From Brevinematia bacterium (GTDB lineage: Bacteria; Spirochaetota; Brevinematia; DTOW01), in NCBI GenBank assembly GCA_049968435.1, contig JBMFQU010000002.1, forward strand, positions 1 to 44,666: 44,666 nucleotides of DNA, given 5' to 3'. Shown piece by piece: positions 1 through 44,666 of the stretch (the stretch's first letter is position 1; every line of letters begins with the position of its first letter). The translations under genes were made by a program, and so were the position numbers. The notes under the pieces are model-generated. The model had not been told where the DNA came from. It ran no database searches and saw only the letters and a list, made by a program, of their open reading frames with translations.

Positions 1-145
1 CCCCTAAGTTCTACAATTAGAGATGTTAAAAAGTTTAGGAAAATAATAGAAGGAAGGAATTTTAAGGAATTCCTTTTGCTTTTCCCATGCTCTTAAGCGT
101 CTATAGGAAGCTACGCCCTCCTTTTAATACCTCCTATCATAGAGA
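1..145 (+). repeat. Mosaic intergenic repeat family: tail of one unit plus one degenerate unit
   Basis: The window opens inside a C-box tail (cccctaagttc, compare 4022-4034). Positions 64-143 follow the unit layout: aaggaattccttttgc leader, degenerate C-box, imperfect hairpin aggaag...ccctcct (105-122), and tacctcct box (128-135). Confidence 0.7.
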
Positions 146-158
146 TTATAAAGAAAGA

Positions 159-3913: not shown

Positions 3914-3974
3914 CTATTACCTCTTCGATTAAAGTATAATAAAAAACTAAAAATAAATTCAAATAACAAGAAAA

Positions 3975-4400
3975 GTATTTAAAGAATTTTTTAAGAAACC
4001 TCCTTTTGCTTCCCGCCCACCCTCCCTTAAGTTCAGCAGGAGGACTTCGTCCTCCTATTGGTACCTCCATTTAGAAAGCACATTCATCAAATTATTTTAG
4101 AAATCACTCTTAGTATAATGACTACGCCTTCCCATTAGACACCTACTCTATAAGTAAAAAAGATAAAACCCTTACTTCTAATAGAAGGTAAGAATTTTTT
4201 AAGATACTTCTTTTTGCTCCCCGCCCACCCACCCTATAGTTCTTTATTAAAGTTCTAACTTCTTATTATGTTATTCCTCTTATCAAGATCTCCCTTTACC
4301 TATAAGTTCCTAATTCTTAATAACAAATACCGAATCCTGATAGAGTTAAAATTTATTTTAGATTAACGAAGGATAAGTATTCATTTTTAAGCTTAATTAA
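3975..4400 (+). repeat. Mosaic intergenic repeat family, about 2 full units plus fragments
   Basis: C-boxes cccgcccaccctccc (4012-4026) and ccccgcccacccaccc (4219-4234). Hairpin aggaggacttcgtcctcct (4038-4056). tacctccatttag box (4062-4074). Leader gaattttttaaga(a/t)ac occurs at 3984 and 4192. AT-rich terminal box at 4304-4320. Confidence 0.85.
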
Positions 4401-4439
4401 TACTTTTAATAAGCTTAATAATTGTTTTTTAAGTAATTC

Positions 4440-4464
4440 AAAATTTGTCTTTCAGAAGACAAAT
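4440..4464 (-). terminator. Weak candidate intrinsic terminator after mlaE
   Basis: 9-bp stem atttgtctt/aagacaaat (4443-4451 / 4456-4464) with a 4-nt loop containing the mlaE stop codon. A short T-run follows on the - strand. The stem is AT-rich, so support is weak. Confidence 0.3.
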
Positions 4465-9017: not shown

Positions 9018-10169
9018 CTAACTTTGCTTTTTGTAAATGGAATTTATTTTTTCAATTCCAACTTCAATTGTTTTGTCAGATGCAGCAAAAGATAATCTAA
9101 AGTTCGTAATTCTTTCAGAGAATACATCACCAGGTATAATCAAAACACCTTCTCTTATACATTCATCTACAAATTTTTTAACATTAATATCAGCATCTTT
9201 CGGGGAAGGAAAAGCATAAAAAGCACCTTCTGGTTTAACAACATTAAAATTATCACTAAGACCTTCATAAACCATATCTCTTTTCTTTTTATACCTTTTT
9301 ATATACTTTGACATATCATAATCAAGAGCTTTAATAGAAGCATACTGAGCAAACGAAGGAGCACAAACAAAAGTATATTGCTGTAATTTTATCATTTCTT
9401 TTATTATAATCTGAGGTCCAAAAGCAAAACCAATTCTCCAACCTGTCATTGCGTAAGTTTTTGAAAAACCACCAAGCAAAACTGTTCCTTCTGGATAAAC
9501 CGAAGCAATTGACCTATATTCACCATCATAAACAAATTCATCATATATTTCATCAGAAATAACCAGAATGTTATTTCTTTTAGCAATATTGTAAATTACA
9601 TCAATATCAGTTTTATCAAGAATCTTACCTGTTGGATTTGTTGGAGAATTTATTATTATCGCCTTAGTTTTTTCTGTAATTTTGCTTTCTATTTCCTTCT
9701 TTTTATTTGATATTTTGAAATCAGGGTATATATCAACGATAATAGGTTTTCCACCAAAAAGTTTAATTAGATGCTTATACATTACAAAATAAGGATCAAA
9801 AAATAAAACTTCATCACCTTCATTGAGGATAGAAAGTAAAACCAAAACCAAACCACCAGAAACACCTGAAGTTATGATACAATCGTCTTTAGTATATTTT
9901 GTACCTCTCTTTCTATTAACAACTTCAGCTAACTTCTCTCTAAGAGGTTCAATGCCTTGAGTTACCGTATATTTATTAAAACCTAATTCAATTGCTTTTA
10001 TTGCCTCTTTCTTTATCTCCTCTGGTATATCAAAATCTGGCTGACCTATACTTAGATTTATGGGATTTTCTATCTTCTGAGCTAAATCAAAAACCTTTCT
10101 TATACCTGAAGAATCAACCATTTTACTTTTTTGAGAAATAAAAGATTCAATATCATCTATCTTTTTCAT
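9018..10169 (-). CDS. PLP-dependent aminotransferase, class I/II (aspartate aminotransferase-like)
   Basis: PLP-lysine motif is SFSKTYAMTGWRIGF. NSPTNPTG motif is present. The track start at 10190 is a TTG, so I use the first ATG at 10169. Confidence 0.85.
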   Translation of the reverse strand: MKKIDDIESFISQKSKMVDSSGIRKVFDLAQKIENPINLSIGQPDFDIPEEIKKEAIKAIELGFNKYTVTQGIEPLREKLAEVVNRKRGTKYTKDDCIITSGVSGGLVLVLLSILNEGDEVLFFDPYFVMYKHLIKLFGGKPIIVDIYPDFKISNKKKEIESKITEKTKAIIINSPTNPTGKILDKTDIDVIYNIAKRNNILVISDEIYDEFVYDGEYRSIASVYPEGTVLLGGFSKTYAMTGWRIGFAFGPQIIIKEMIKLQQYTFVCAPSFAQYASIKALDYDMSKYIKRYKKKRDMVYEGLSDNFNVVKPEGAFYAFPSPKDADINVKKFVDECIREGVLIIPGDVFSERITNFRLSFAASDKTIEVGIEKINSIYKKQS

Positions 10170-10210
10170 AAGTATAATGATAATATCCAAAAGTAACTAA
10201 ATTCAAATAA

Positions 10211-11275
10211 GAATTTTTTGAAATATCCTCTTTAGGAGGGTTTTACCTTCTTTTTTATTACTCTCTAAGGAAGTTATTTTTGCTCCCCACTCGCCCACCC
10301 TTTAGTTCCATGTAAGAGGGTTAACGCCCTCCTACGAATACCTCCCTTTAGTTATTTATGAAAGTTCTAACTTCTTATTAGCCATCTCCTTTAGAAGAAA
10401 GGATAAAATGGTTATTCATAATAAAGTTAGGAATTTTAAGAAACTTCTTTTTGTTCCCCGCCACCCTCCCATAAGTTCAGCAGGAGGACTTCGTCCTCCT
10501 AATAGTACCTCCTATTTAGAAAGATAAGAAAGCAAACTTCTTGATTTTATAAACCATTTTTAGTATTCCCGCCCTTCTAGATTAGCGAAGGCTTCGTCTT
10601 CACTTCTTCCATTAGAAGACAAAATTCTACTCACTCTAATAGAAATTTAGTATTTTTTAGAAACTTCTTTTTGTTTCCCACCCAACCCACCCTTTAGCTT
10701 CAACAGGAGGACTTCGTCCTCCTAGTAGTACCACCTTTAGTTCGTTAGGAAAGTTATACCTTCTTATTATGTTCTTCCTTTAGAAGTAAGAAAGAATAGA
10801 AAATTTTACTCCTGATAGAATTAAGAAAATTCTTTTCGCATCCCGCCCAACCTACCCTTAAACTTCTATAGGAAAGCATCACCTCATTTTGGGATCTATT
10901 TTTATTTATTCAAAGTAGGTTAAATTCTATAAAAAAGTTATTTGCTATTCCTGATAGAAGTTAAGAAATTTTAGAAAGCTCTTTTAGTCCCCCACACGCC
11001 CTTTAGTGCGTTAAGAGGATTTCACCCTCTTATCAATATCTCCCTCTAATTCGTCCAGGAAAATTCTACCTTCATTTAGGTAGCTACTAAAAGTAAGAGA
11101 ATATAGGAAATTCATTTCTAGTAGAATTGAGAGTTTTTAAAATACTTCTTTTAGTAGCACCCCCTTACTTTTGCACGATAAGATAGCTTACACTCTAAAA
11201 TCTCTCTTTACCTATAGGGTATAAGATATTGATGATATTCTCCAATCCCAAATTTCTAATTCCTAATCTGGTAAA
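10211..11275 (+). repeat. 1.1-kb tandem array of the mosaic intergenic repeat family (at least 7 C-box units)
   Basis: C-boxes at 10285-10300, 10456-10470, 10568-10574, 10677-10692, 10842-10857, 10989-11001 and 11158-11165. Hairpins at 10316-10331, 10482-10500, 10587-10601, 10705-10723 and 11012-11032. ACCTCC boxes at 10339-10351, 10506-10519 and 10729-10740. Terminal AT-rich box at 11247-11270. C-box spacing is about 110-170 bp. Confidence 0.9.
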
Positions 11276-11328
11276 GGCCCTATCTTTTATTACTCATTCA
11301 CTAATTACTAATTGTGGCAATTAAATTT

Positions 11329-12936
11329 TTACCTATCCTTATTTATGAAAATTAAATTGGTATAACCTCTAAAAGAAAAATTAAGTTCTCCATTCGTTAT
11401 AGTAATAACATTACCAGTAAACAAATCAACGATCTTTTTATTTGATATAATACTTAAAATATCATCATTCAAAAATAACTTAAAATCAATTTCCGAAGGA
11501 TAGGAATAAACTATAACCAAAGCGAAATTACTAGTACTACTATCGTATCTAGCATAAGATACAACCTTATCCATAAAATCGTTTGATAAAATTGAGAAAT
11601 TCCCATTCACAAAAACCTTATTCTCATTTCTTATCTTTGATATTTTTCTTACATGGTTTAAAATAGAGTCTTTATCCTTTTCTTGGTCTTTAACATTGAT
11701 TATAGGATCAGGATTAACATATGTCCAAGGAGAACCTGTTGTAAAACCTACCTTTTCGCTATTTTCCCATACCATAGGATCCCTAAATGCCATATCACCT
11801 CTTAGATATGGTGAATTTATCATACCTATTTCATCACCATAGTAAATGAAAGGATTACCTGGAAGAGTAAAAAGAACAGTATAAAATAGTTTTAACCTTT
11901 CAAAATTGTCAGGTCTTTTAAAAATGAGATTATGAACTCTTGTAACATCATGATTTGAGCTAAACGGATACAAAAACTTCCAACTCTGTAAACTACCAGT
12001 TAGAGCCAACATTTCCTCAAGGTATTTATAAAATCTACCAATTCTTGGATTAAAACCTACTGTAGATGAAACAACTTCTCTAGTTTCAAAATCAAAACAA
12101 CCATCAAGAGCATCCTTATACTTTAAAACTGTTTTATTATCAGTCCAAACCTCTCCAACTAGAAAAGATTGAGGATTAACTTTTTTACAGAAGCTATTGA
12201 AGCTTTTAAGAAACATTATAGTATCTTCCGTATCAGCCTGACCTTCACCAGGTCCTATCTCTATAAGATATCTAACTGCATCTAACCTAAAACCACCTAT
12301 CCCCATTTCAAGCCAATATTTAGCAATCTTATATATTTCATTGACAACATCAGGATTTTTTAAATTAAGGTCTGGCATACCTGGAGAAAAAGCACTATAG
12401 TAATATTCTCTCCTTATCCCAGAATAACTCCATACTTCCCAAGGAGAATTGCCCTTAGTCCAAGGTTTAGACCATCCTATTTTACCCTCAACATTTGGTA
12501 TTTTAGGTACCCATATATACCAACTATCAAAAAATGGATCTCTTAACTGAGATTTTTTAAACCATTCTATTTGGGAAGAGGTATGGTTAATAACAAGATC
12601 AAGTAGAATCTTTATATTCCTTTTTTCAGCTTCCTTTACTAGTAATTTAAGATCATCAAGAGTACCAAACTGTGGATTAACATTATAATAATCGGTTATA
12701 TCGTACCCATGATAAGATGGGCTAGGAAAAGCTGGGTTAAGCCATATTCCACCAACACCAAGAGACTTTACATAATCTAATTTGCTAATTATACCTTTAA
12801 TATCACCTATTCCATCACCATCACTATCATAAAAACTTCTTGGAAAAATTTGATAAAAAGAAACCTCTCTATACCACTGCCCATAAGAAGGAAACACGAA
12901 AATACATGATACAAAAATTAACAAAAATTTTTTCAT
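11329..12936 (-). CDS. Secreted GH13 alpha-amylase-family glycoside hydrolase
   Basis: Signal peptide present. All four GH13 regions are seen: DLVINHTS, GGFRLDAVRY, VGEVW and SNHD. The N-terminal FYQIFPRSFYDSDGDGIGD calcium-site motif is also present. Confidence 0.9.
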   Translation of the reverse strand: MKKFLLIFVSCIFVFPSYGQWYREVSFYQIFPRSFYDSDGDGIGDIKGIISKLDYVKSLGVGGIWLNPAFPSPSYHGYDITDYYNVNPQFGTLDDLKLLVKEAEKRNIKILLDLVINHTSSQIEWFKKSQLRDPFFDSWYIWVPKIPNVEGKIGWSKPWTKGNSPWEVWSYSGIRREYYYSAFSPGMPDLNLKNPDVVNEIYKIAKYWLEMGIGGFRLDAVRYLIEIGPGEGQADTEDTIMFLKSFNSFCKKVNPQSFLVGEVWTDNKTVLKYKDALDGCFDFETREVVSSTVGFNPRIGRFYKYLEEMLALTGSLQSWKFLYPFSSNHDVTRVHNLIFKRPDNFERLKLFYTVLFTLPGNPFIYYGDEIGMINSPYLRGDMAFRDPMVWENSEKVGFTTGSPWTYVNPDPIINVKDQEKDKDSILNHVRKISKIRNENKVFVNGNFSILSNDFMDKVVSYARYDSSTSNFALVIVYSYPSEIDFKLFLNDDILSIISNKKIVDLFTGNVITITNGELNFSFRGYTNLIFINKDR

Positions 12937-12989
12937 GGGCTTATTATTTATACAAAACTACATAAACTACAAATTCAATAAAAATATTC

Positions 12990-13475
12990 TTTTTCTACTA
13001 TCAGTACCTTATAATCTTCTTAACAAGAAAGAGTTATTTTCTAAATAAGAATTTTAGAAACCTCTTTTTGTTCCCCACCCAACCCTCACTTAAGTTCTAC
13101 ACAGGAGGACTTCGTCCTCCTATAGCATCTCCTTTAGCCGTCCAAAGTAGGCTTCACCTTCACTGCTTTCAACTAATAAGCAAATTAACATTCATCCTAC
13201 TTTAGAAGTAAAAAGATAAAGGATTCACCCTAATAGAATGTTAGAAATTTTTTAAGAAACTTATTTTCGTTCCTCACCCAACCCCCCTATTAGATTGGCG
13301 AAGGATAAACCTACTTTGATACCTACCTTTAGCCATATAAAGTAGGCTGCATCCCTTTCTATAAGAAAATTATTTACTGTTTCCGTAGAGTTAAAAGCCT
13401 CTTACAAGAGGTTTAAGAAAATTATTTTCAATATCTCAAATTCTATTCTTAATTCTCAAATGCCATCTAAATGGT
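12990..13475 (+). repeat. Mosaic intergenic repeat family, about 2-3 units
   Basis: C-boxes at 13073-13087 and 13272-13287. Hairpin aggaggacttcgtcctcct at 13103-13121. catctcctttag box at 13126-13137. tagattggcgaagg module at 13290-13304 (compare 10578-10592 and 4358-4372). Hairpin cctctt-aca-aagagg at 13398-13412. AT-rich terminal box at 13435-13462. Confidence 0.85.
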
Positions 13476-13532
13476 AAAACTTTATAATTTACAATTTGAA
13501 ATCAGAAACAAATCAGTAGTATATTAATCTTC

Positions 13533-14006
13533 ATGAGTAAAAAAATTATCAAATTTACATTGACAATCCTACTACCTTTAAGTATCTCAAGTTGCATAAT
13601 AGGAGAAATACAAAGTGGCTTCCCATTAGATCCACCATTAGGATTAGAGCTTACCCAAGTTAGTAACAATTCTATACTAAGTGAGTGGTGGGGCTACAAT
13701 ACTGAAAGTTATTTCTCTGGATATGTAATTTTCATAACTACAAACTCAAATGATCTTTACCAAGATAGAAACTCAACGAACCACTTCAATAAACCTTATC
13801 TTACAAATTCCTTGGGCAACCTACCAACAATCTTTGCACCTATTCCCTCAACTACAACAAAATACTCATTTACGATAACTCAATTACCAAACGGAAATCC
13901 AATAACTACAAACATAACATACTATGTAGCTGTAGCAGCATATTCAGCATCAAAAAGTGCATTCAGTCCATTAAGCAACATAACCAACATTACACTAACA
14001 AATTAA
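13533..14006 (+). CDS. Small lipoprotein with FN3-like domain
   Basis: Lipobox is LSISSC. The pattern SILSEWWGY...GYVIF...YYVAVAAYS resembles a fibronectin type III fold. Confidence 0.5.
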   Translation: MSKKIIKFTLTILLPLSISSCIIGEIQSGFPLDPPLGLELTQVSNNSILSEWWGYNTESYFSGYVIFITTNSNDLYQDRNSTNHFNKPYLTNSLGNLPTIFAPIPSTTTKYSFTITQLPNGNPITTNITYYVAVAAYSASKSAFSPLSNITNITLTN

Positions 14007-25511: not shown

Positions 25512-25612
25512 CCTTAGAAAACTCTTCTTGCTTCTCACCTACCTTGTAAAGCGTAATAGGACTATTCAACTCTTACAAATTCAAAATCATAAATCACAAA
25601 TTCTAATAAAAT
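25512..25612 (+). repeat. Degenerate single unit of the mosaic repeat plus AT-rich terminal box
   Basis: ccttagaaaactcttcttgcttctcacctaccttgtaaagcg keeps the leader and a decayed C-box. The terminal box is at 25575-25610 (acaaattcaaaatcataaatcacaaattctaataaa). Confidence 0.45.
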
Positions 25613-43674: not shown

Positions 43675-44379
43675 TTACCTCCTTTCATCAGAAAATATCT
43701 GTCCATCTTTCAAAATAATAACTCTTTTAGCATGTTTCTCAACCATAGGATCATGTGTTGAAAATATGAAAGTAGTATTTTCCAACTCATTCATCCTCTT
43801 CATTATTTCAATAACTTCTTCAGCAGTCTCAGAATCAAGGTTAGCAGTAGGCTCGTCAGCAAGAACTAACAGAGGTCTTTTTACCAAAGCTCTAGCAATA
43901 GCAACCCTTTGTTCTTGTCCACCAGATATTTCATTGGGATACTCATTCTCAAGCCCCTTAAGTCCAACTTTATCAATAAGCTCTAAAACTCTACTCTATC
44001 TTTCCTTCTTGCTAATAGAAGGATCTATAGTAAGTGGTAGTTCTATATTCTCCTTCACAGTCAAAACAGGAATTAAGTTATAAGATTGAAATATAAAACC
44101 TATATTTTTCTTTCTGTATTCAGCCAATGTTTTTTCATCTAAACTATTAAGATTAATACCATCATAAATAACCTCTCCACTAGTAGGAACATCAAGACAA
44201 CCAATAATATTAAGCAAAGTTGTTTTACCACTACCTGAAGGCCCCATAATTGATATAAATTCACCTTTATCTACAACTAAATTAATCCCTTTAAGTGCTT
44301 ATACCTTAACTCTCCCTTCTCTCCCATCCTCTCCTTTATAGTAAACCTTCCAAACATTTATTAAAACTAAGATACTCAT
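43675..44379 (-). pseudogene. ABC transporter ATP-binding protein (LolD/MacB-type) with two in-frame stop codons
   Basis: One continuous frame runs from the ATG at 44379. It contains Walker A GPSGSGKTT, signature [15 protein letters not shown] and Walker [10 protein letters not shown]. It is interrupted by TAA at 44299-44301 (GRVKV*ALKGINL) and TAG at 43996-43998 ([17 protein letters not shown]). Confidence 0.85.
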
Positions 44380-44393: not shown

Positions 44394-44451
44394 AAAATTA
44401 ATTATTAGCTAACTATTAAATTTGAAACAACATAATAATGTAAAAAAAATA

Positions 44452-44666
44452 CTTTTAGTATTTCACCAACCCGCCCTATAGTGCGTTAAGAGTGTTTCAC
44501 CCTCTTATCAATATCTCTCTTTATTATCCCACAATCACCTGTTCCAAATTCATATTAGGTACCTACTAGAAGTGAATATAAAGAATTCACTCCTAATATA
44601 AGTAAAAATTTTAGAAACTTCTTTTTGTTTCCCGCCCACCCACCCTTTAGTTCTATACAGGAGGAC
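44452..44666 (+). repeat. Mosaic intergenic repeat family, about 1.5 units running off the window end
   Basis: 44455-44525 is close to 10975-11045 in sequence: C-box at 44464-44476, hairpin taagag...ctctta at 44487-44507, then atatctctc box. A second unit has leader ttttagaaacttctttttg, C-box cccgcccacccaccc (44631-44645), and the start of the aggaggac hairpin at 44659. Confidence 0.85.

Follow-up and report, generated by a model that had tools for sequence, protein, structure and literature searches.

A recurrent intergenic stem-loop of a Brevinematia genome as a module of a lineage-restricted repeat family

We have analyzed a stretch of 44,666 nucleotides (44.7 kb, from here on the window) from contig JBMFQU010000002.1 of a Brevinematia bacterium (assembly GCA_049968435.1). 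A 19-nucleotide hairpin, AGGAGGACTTCGTCCTCCT, recurs in its intergenic DNA, and the stem of this hairpin pairs AGGAGG exactly with CCTCCT, so that a Shine-Dalgarno (SD) sequence faces its own complement. An initial sequence-only reading of the window had taken the structure itself to be under selection and had proposed that the RNA would hold a sequestered ribosome-binding mimic. What kind of element is this hairpin, is its pairing maintained, and does its likeness to a ribosome-binding site bear on translation? The answer that we favour, and consider probable, is that the hairpin forms the stem-loop at the core of subtype A, the commonest form of a dispersed, lineage-restricted repeat of the REP/BIME, BOX or SPRITE kind, with the mechanism proposed below.

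Conservation and pairing of the stem-loop

The 19-mer is present base for base at four plus-strand positions, and the window end truncates a fifth copy, of which only AGGAGGAC remains (Table 1). The chance expectation, from 100 dinucleotide-preserving shuffles, is 0.00 matches. The flanks of the four complete copies differ, as the sequence-only reading had stated; they are 70-84% identical on the 5' side and 35-60% on the 3' side. All 19 of 19 hairpin columns are invariant among these copies, compared with 44 of 101 flank columns. The probability of 19 consecutive invariant columns is ~1e-7, or ~5e-5 when the better-conserved 5' flank alone is used. The subtype-A stem has 8 G/C-rich base pairs, with a stability of ~ -13 kcal/mol as RNA; as DNA, the stem-loop at 10482-10500 has -7.2/-7.3 kcal/mol (z ~ -5).

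Every variant stem that had been named in other units was found at its place. In the aligned copies of the window these stems occupy one shared unit position, between ...CCC-TTWAG-(8-13 nt) and TAYCTCC-TTTAG, and they are thus positional homologues and not unrelated insertions. The subtype-C stem-loop has the same TTC/GAA loop as subtype A, with two pairs changed on both sides, and is without the GGAGG core. Subtype B folds on the minus strand as GUAGGAGGG-cguuaa-CCCUCUUAC, with 9 bp including one G.U pair, while the plus strand needs two bulges. The subtype-E stem-loop at 11012-11032 forms 9 bp with a GAA loop on the minus strand; on the plus strand its loop is 7 nt long and one position is an A.C mismatch. 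The degenerate stem-loop of unit u57 has -7.8 kcal/mol on the minus strand and -2.8 kcal/mol on the plus strand.

Covariation was assessed on structure-blind MAFFT alignments of 9-11 paralogous units that share ancestry, with 500 shuffles as a control that is made generous by this kinship. On the plus strand 81.8% of the cells are paired (73.9±1.9% in shuffles), and on the minus strand 89.7% (82.6±1.8% in shuffles); in both cases 0 of 500 shuffles reach the observed value. Double-sided changes are found in 5 of 8 pairs on the plus strand and 5 of 9 on the minus strand, spread over four subtypes. The covariation score is 0.409 for the plus strand and 0.401 for the minus strand, against 0.261 and 0.257 in the shuffles (spread 0.26±0.04), none of which (0/500 on either strand) attains it. 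Sliding the partners by 1-3 columns gives scores of 0.11-0.26 (plus) and 0.08-0.19 (minus). RNAalifold predicts the stem-loop as the sole consensus helix of the 95-nt module on either strand. Because of the double-sided changes, the low slid controls and the 19/19 identity amid flanks of 35-84% identity, we conclude that the pairing of the stem-loop is constrained. The proposal that the structure itself is selected therefore stands in part: pairing has been kept through changes on both sides, while the covariation, since it comes from a small sample of 9-11 related paralogues, appears suggestive and short of R-scape-grade proof.

The minus strand is the G-rich strand of the repeat and the sense strand of the neighbouring genes. 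By per-unit minimum free energy (MFE) the minus-strand hairpin is the more stable in 10 of 11 units, which is weak evidence. The MAFFT alignment contains 6 G.U wobbles on the plus strand and 9 on the minus strand, a count that gives no decision on the folded strand. In subtypes B and E and in u57 the plus strand has an A.C mismatch where the minus strand has a G.U pair. GAA is the loop of the minus strand; its closing pair is C-G in subtypes A and C (a cGAAg triloop) and U-A in subtype E. Array 2 is over-structured on both strands, with fold z-scores of -3.5 (minus) and -3.2 (plus).

Repeat units, arrays and their distribution

The hairpin is one module of a mosaic intergenic repeat unit of 165-220 nt. 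At least 14 such units occur in five intergenic gaps, together with one decayed relic; all are co-oriented and none lies inside a gene. A profile made from six units has 15 matches, all on the plus strand and all in intergenic gaps, which are filled by direct-repeat families D1-D6. Read on the plus strand, a unit consists of a 5' module, TTTTAGAAACTTCTTTTTGTT, with the C-tract CCCRCCCACCCACCC, then TTWAG, the stem-loop, TAYCTCC-TTTAG and a variable tail with further small hairpins. Subtypes A-E are intermixed among the arrays, and in u4196 the stem-loop has been deleted between two CCC-TTTAG repeats. A covariance model of the stem-loop and its flanks recovers the nine training units at E<=2e-6 and three more matches in the arrays at E 0.002-0.19; it finds nothing credible beyond the arrays in the window, where the remaining matches are noise (E>=0.27).

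The units are built of a smaller repeat, a C-rich, G-free 8-mer followed by W0-3 TWAG, with 22 occurrences in the 2.4 kb of repeats, 29 in the 42 kb outside and none on the minus strand of the repeats. The density of CCTCC is 5.8/kb in the repeats and 0.59/kb outside. The 3' arm of the hairpin is one CCTCC-TTTAG sub-repeat, nearly duplicated by the next one (CCTCCTAATAG and CCTCCTATTTAG), and the 5' arm repeats it in inverted form. The C-tract reads on the minus strand as GGGNGGGNGGGNGGG, the strongest class of G-quadruplex motif, and is imperfect at 10456, 10842 and 13272; no other quadruplex motif with runs of at least 3 is found on either strand of the window. Terminal inverted repeats and target duplications are absent from the unit ends; only weak internal arms with 72-84% complementarity are seen, and an inverted-repeat search of the units returned self-palindromes only and no inverted doublets.

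A second small hairpin, variable in sequence, is located near the 3' end of most units (4172-4193, 10385-10401, 10772-10797, 11066-11083 and 44564-44598). Several of these lead on the minus strand into T-rich runs and look like terminators, for example CTTACCTTCT-ATT-AGAAGTAAG followed by GGTTTTATCTTTTTT, a feature that recalls the pneumococcal SPRITE. Palindromes also mark the right ends of array 1 (4383-4422, AAGCTTAAT...ATTAAGCTT) and array 3 (13398-13411, CCTCTT-aca-AGAGG), each with T-rich sequence after it on the plus strand; judging from these motifs, plus-strand transcripts that run through the arrays might end there.

Table 1. Stem-loops, units, arrays and associated features of the repeat family in the window
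Feature	Position (strand)	Remarks
Subtype-A stem-loop, AGGAGGAC-TTC-GTCCTCCT, unit u3988	4038-4056 (+)	exact match; in MFE fold, both strands
Subtype-A stem-loop, unit u10433	10482-10500 (+)	exact match; in MFE fold, both strands
Subtype-A stem-loop, unit u10653	10705-10723 (+)	exact match; in MFE fold, both strands
Subtype-A stem-loop, unit u13050	13103-13121 (+)	exact match; in MFE fold, both strands
5' arm of subtype-A stem-loop, unit u44607	44659-44666	cut by window end
Subtype-B stem-loop	10312-10335	core GAGGG-ttaacg-CCCTC, 10316-10331
Subtype-C stem-loop, GCGAAGGC-TTC-GTCTTCAC	10585-10603	core GAAGGC-ttc-GTCTTC, 10587-10601
Subtype-E stem-loop, TAAGAGG-atttcac-CCTCTTA	11012-11032	
Second subtype-E stem-loop, TAAGAGTGTTTCACCCTCTTA	44487-44507	unit 87% identical (direct-repeat family D2)
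Degenerate stem-loop, AGGAAG-ctacgc-CCTCCT, unit u57	105-122	in 3' flank of minus-strand gene 159-1628
Subtype A units (invariant hairpin)	3988, 10433, 10653, 13050, 44607	
Subtype B unit	10262	
Subtype C units	10535, 13249	
Subtype D unit	10818	
Subtype E units	10964, 44440	
Array 1	3985-4380 (+)	u3988 (A), u4196 (stem-loop module deleted)
Array 2	10222-11250 (+)	u10262 (B), u10433 (A) with u10535 (C), u10653 (A), u10818 (D), u10964 (E), u11132 (decayed)
Array 3	13040-13400 (+)	u13050 (A), u13249 (C)
Array 4	44440-44666 (+)	u44440 (E), u44607 (A, cut by window end)
Single diverged unit u57	57-150 (+)	profile E=2e-6
Decayed relic of 5' module	25513-25560 (+)	orientation as in arrays; profile E=0.07
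C-tract of 5' module	10456-10470 (-)	imperfect form
Canonical C-tract CCCRCCCACCCACCC	4012-4026, 4219-4234, 10677-10692, 44631-44645	reads as G3N1 quadruplex-type on minus strand
Unusually long intergenic gaps	1-158; 3914-4451; 10170-11328; 12937-13532; 44380 to window end	hold all hairpins

The repeat family is restricted to one lineage or species. The profile found no member in ~90 kb from five related Brevinematia lineages (73-79% amino acid identity), in which the orthologous aminotransferase gene is preceded by a gap of 50-250 nt that lacks the element. The exact 19-mer gave 20 single matches among the GTDB species representatives, all in unrelated genomes and 0 in Brevinematia, which were judged to be due to chance. 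No repeat match was found in viral contigs, plasmids or phages. Among metagenome contigs from JGI a pattern for the 5' module (GAAACYTCYTTTTGYTYCCCRCC) retrieved five contigs matching the 23-mer only, this pattern being too narrow. The same pattern of distribution led Croucher et al. (2011, PMC3049150) to the parasitic view of the pneumococcal repeats: BOX, RUP and SPRITE, restricted to S. pneumoniae and S. mitis, were for this reason judged parasitic, and they affect co-transcribed genes through their secondary structure.

Contigs of three metagenome-assembled genomes (MAGs) of the same species and of one JGI sample (99.4-99.7% identical to the window) stop inside the repeats. One contig of MAG GCA_049969235.1 (L024, 1-92) matches the window at 99.7% identity as far as 10218, precisely at the left edge of array 2, and continues into sequence that is absent from the window and is apparently the 3' end of another gene; this junction is due either to a rearrangement, to a strain that lacks the array, or to a chimeric assembly. 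Clustered differences separate same-species units from the window at 10285-10300 (contigs L021 and L023) and 13255-13290 (L038 and L039). They fall mainly in the 5' module and C-tract, several within a few bases, the remainder being identical, and could be due to gene conversion among copies or to read mixing at contig ends. Two contigs of related Brevinematia (L035, 14330-15000, and L032, 2500-2960) contain long intergenic stretches, poor in G and rich in pyrimidines, with motifs resembling CCTCC and CCCTAC, in which the profile search detects no homology to the repeat family.

The window has ~30% G+C and is densely coding, with genes mostly on the minus strand. The homologues of the aminotransferase gene (9018-10169) place the source in Brevinematia (Spirochaetota); two Brevinematia MAG proteins are 99% identical to its product, and the next best are at most 79%. 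The GC skew of the plus strand is negative over the entire window, which lies within a single skew domain. No tRNAs are present in the window, and no family of Rfam 15 matches it at gathering score; at E<=1 the region 10150-13560 gives 1 sub-threshold match, to DUF805 RNA (13490-13547), beyond the repeat arrays. The list of open reading frames (ORFs) for the window shows none of at least 80 amino acids inside the arrays, and no transposase was seen among the 20 window ORFs scanned. The gene at 43675-44379 (minus strand) for a lolD/macB-type ABC ATPase is of full length, with intact Walker A, signature and Walker B motifs, and has two in-frame stops (TAA after ...GRVKV and TAG after ...SKKER); a recent pseudogene, an error in the consensus and read-through are all conceivable.

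Possible roles of the stem-loop

We propose that the element requires a stable stem-loop on its G-rich strand, in the sense of the neighbouring genes. Such a requirement would lead compensatory changes to keep the pairing and would hold subtype A invariant. By analogy with REP and BOX, the stem-loop would be a structure for the propagation or maintenance of the element. Where units are co-transcribed with the flanking minus-strand genes, it may also act as a passive barrier in the mRNA, blocking exonucleases or marking a processing site, and would not be a regulated switch.

Several observations weigh against this proposal. Minus-strand promoter-like sites (3962-3933 and 10206-10177) separate the arrays from the genes downstream, and mlaE is followed by a terminator-like hairpin (4439-4459); therefore arrays 1 and 2 may lie outside the neighbouring mRNAs, as these predicted signals suggest. 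The uniform orientation at 6 of 6 loci has a two-sided p of ~0.03, and in it the direction of transcription is inseparable from that of replication. The strand preference amounts to three wobble events versus one, which is not significant. Neither a mobilising enzyme, among the window ORFs scanned, nor a terminal inverted repeat or target duplication was seen. Finally, all analyses of the window concern 44.7 kb of one genome.

The orientation is also the point at which a DNA-level explanation enters. The pairing might be selected in DNA, for mobility, if the hairpin, perhaps with the G-tract, were recognised on the G-rich strand when this is single-stranded as the lagging-strand template. The recognising factor would be a trans-acting HUH/Y1 transposase (RAYT or IS200/IS605-like), with the repeat as a non-autonomous element similar to PATEs, or else an enzyme of priming or of some other DNA process. 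Strict co-orientation at all six loci is in keeping with this, and elements of IS200/IS605 type predict the absence of terminal inverted repeats and target duplications. With the negative skew of the plus strand, the G-rich strand of the repeat would be the lagging-strand template, and the arrays are equally over-structured on both strands. The minus-strand cGAAg loop of subtypes A and C, replaced by a U-A-closed one in E, resembles the GAA/GGA triloop mini-hairpins that are unusually stable in DNA and occur at single-stranded initiation sites and N4 promoters (PMC13037366); the local sequence is, however, ACGAAGT and not the canonical GCGAAGC, so that the likeness is a lead and not a test. 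Since the scanned ORFs include no transposase and the units are in mosaic arrays and not discrete insertions, we regard this explanation as unlikely.

The identity of the subtype-A copies could alternatively arise with no structural selection at all, by gene conversion among copies. The apparent compensation would then come from template-switch correction of a quasi-palindrome, or from separate events that each duplicated the adjacent CCTCC sub-repeat in inverted form. The near-duplication of the 3' arm and the next sub-repeat (CCTCCTAATAG, CCTCCTATTTAG) speaks for such an origin, as do the conversion-like clustered differences between orthologous units of the 99.4-99.7% identical MAGs, and the units are paralogues, so that the shuffle control overstates significance. 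Conversion should, however, homogenise the flanks too, and these are 35-84% identical beside a 19/19 stem-loop; double changes are found in five different pairs of four subtypes, and the MAG differences sit at contig ends, where they may reflect assembly mixing. This explanation, too, has a low probability in our view.

A composite device on the G-rich strand, in which a G-quadruplex with one-nucleotide loops (GGGNGGGNGGGNGGG), a cGAAg-capped purine/pyrimidine stem-loop and extended SD motifs work together, is improbable. It might be a lagging-strand single-stranded substrate, hairpin plus quadruplex, for an HUH enzyme or a priming signal, or else a ribosome-titrating RNA with an SD array. In the RNA version the CCUCCU arm might switch between the GGAGG arm and the G-tract by quadruplex formation; these options jointly share the same small likelihood. 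If true, the device would be a repeat class undescribed in bacteria.

The least probable of these explanations is that the arrays make a translation-related RNA. They would be transcribed with many GGAGG (minus) or CCUCC (plus) sites that titrate 30S subunits or the SD sequences of mRNAs, the hairpin being a self-sequestered site that opens under some condition. Besides the exact pairing of AGGAGG with CCTCCT, each unit has 2-4 more motifs of the ACCTCCTTT type, which match the extended anti-SD (AAAGGAGGT on the minus strand), and some real genes of the window have SDs of the GGAGG type. Yet no ATG, GTG or TTG is located 4 to 13 nt after AGGAGG on either strand, where the sequences are ACTTCGTCCTCCTA (plus) and ACGAAGTCCTCCTG (minus), and subtype C remains paired without the GGAGG core; therefore it is the pairing that is conserved and not the SD hexamer. 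On both counts the idea of a sequestered ribosome-binding mimic is not supported. Promoters and terminators around the units are no more frequent than chance would give (15 promoter-like sites, 14.2 expected), absence from related species is unusual for a core translational regulator, and an 8-bp stem of ~ -13 kcal/mol as RNA has more stability than a responsive switch would allow. The likeness to an SD facing an anti-SD is a by-product of sub-repeat composition, and translation is not needed to account for it, because the unit is built of CCTCC-TTTAG sub-repeats of which the 5' arm is one inverted copy.

Other candidates were rejected. An SD-sequestering riboregulator or RNA thermometer does not agree with the absence of the element upstream of the orthologous aminotransferase gene in relatives. 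An intrinsic terminator is contradicted by the sequences after the stem-loop, AATAGTAC (plus) and GCTGAACT (minus), with no direct U-run, and the stem-loop is unlisted in the terminator scan. In a CsrA sponge the GGA motifs would not be confined to stems, as they are in the SD/anti-SD stem and the unit-end stems examined. No conserved start codon follows the SD-like motifs of the units read, as a small ORF or leader peptide would require. For a promoter in each unit (TGATAGAAT at the unit junctions) there is no -35 at proper spacing, and the scan is not above chance. A triple helix, with the downstream CCUCCU binding the purine arm, is indistinguishable from simple sub-repeat duplication. A shared motif, AAATAAATTCAAATAA, is found at 3951-3966 and 10195-10210 (0 and 1 mismatches), where it separates arrays 1 and 2 from the beginning of the minus-strand gene downstream; it overlaps TTGAAT -35-like hexamers, and its count is not above chance for the window.

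The hairpin alone opens no long-standing question. As a repeat family, it documents high-density intergenic repeats (~14 units in 44.7 kb, ~5% of the window) in Brevinematia, a poorly known and mostly uncultured class of spirochaetes, and explains why short-read MAGs of the source species break at the repeat sites. The family is also a species-specific marker, and a clean small example of compensatory change that keeps a stem-loop inside a selfish-looking repeat, here adjoined by a strong G-quadruplex motif in a genome of 30% G+C. If its orientation in a complete genome followed replication and not transcription, the family would be a candidate substrate for single-strand transposition.

Comparison with known systems

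The repeat family is previously undescribed and belongs to a known kind, that of REP/BIME- or BOX-like repeats. With the REP sequences and BIMEs of enterobacteria and pseudomonads, which include the REPINs mobilised by RAYT, it shares short, stable, imperfect palindromes in high copy number, a strictly extragenic location, mosaic clusters with other motifs, compensatory changes in stems and the breaking of short-read assemblies. As an extragenic multi-copy palindrome it counts four exact copies, one that is cut and about six variant stem-loops, every one of them intergenic. It differs in that the stem-loop is one module of a longer unit (165-220 nt), in sequence, and in that no RAYT gene was seen in the window; REPs occur in both orientations, typically as inverted doublets, whereas all 15 profile matches here are on the plus strand. 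MITEs are bounded by terminal inverted repeats and target-site duplications, which the present units are without. PATE-like elements derived from IS200/IS605 have sub-terminal hairpins, no terminal inverted repeats or target-site duplications, and an orientation specific to the replication strand; the present units have a hairpin, no terminal inverted repeats and one orientation at 6 of 6 loci, all within one skew domain, so that this orientation does not tell the direction of replication from that of transcription.

The SD-sequestering hairpins of ROSE and fourU RNA thermometers and of translational riboswitch platforms likewise pair AGGAGG with CCUCCU locally. Here no start codon or ORF follows, and the hairpin is multi-copy, dispersed and tied to no particular gene. 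Its perfect 8-bp stem is far more stable than that of a thermometer, and its variants lose the SD yet pair. The GAA-triloop DNA mini-hairpins of the GCGAAGC type (PMC13037366) are similar in the C-GAA-G tip on the minus strand of subtypes A and C, with a T-A-closed GAA in E. Their second pair is G-C where the present one is A-T, and the likeness is by sequence alone.

In architecture and distribution the family comes close to the pneumococcal BOX and SPRITE repeats. These too (PMC3049150) are modular, with modules variable in number and order, intergenic, rich in secondary structure and confined to one species or its nearest relative, and some of their modules are terminator-like. The likeness is limited to these features, as the phylum is another and the sequences are unrelated. 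BOX has defined A, B and C modules (boxA-boxB(n)-boxC) in both orientations, while the family described here carries a G-quadruplex-type tract and a purine/pyrimidine stem.

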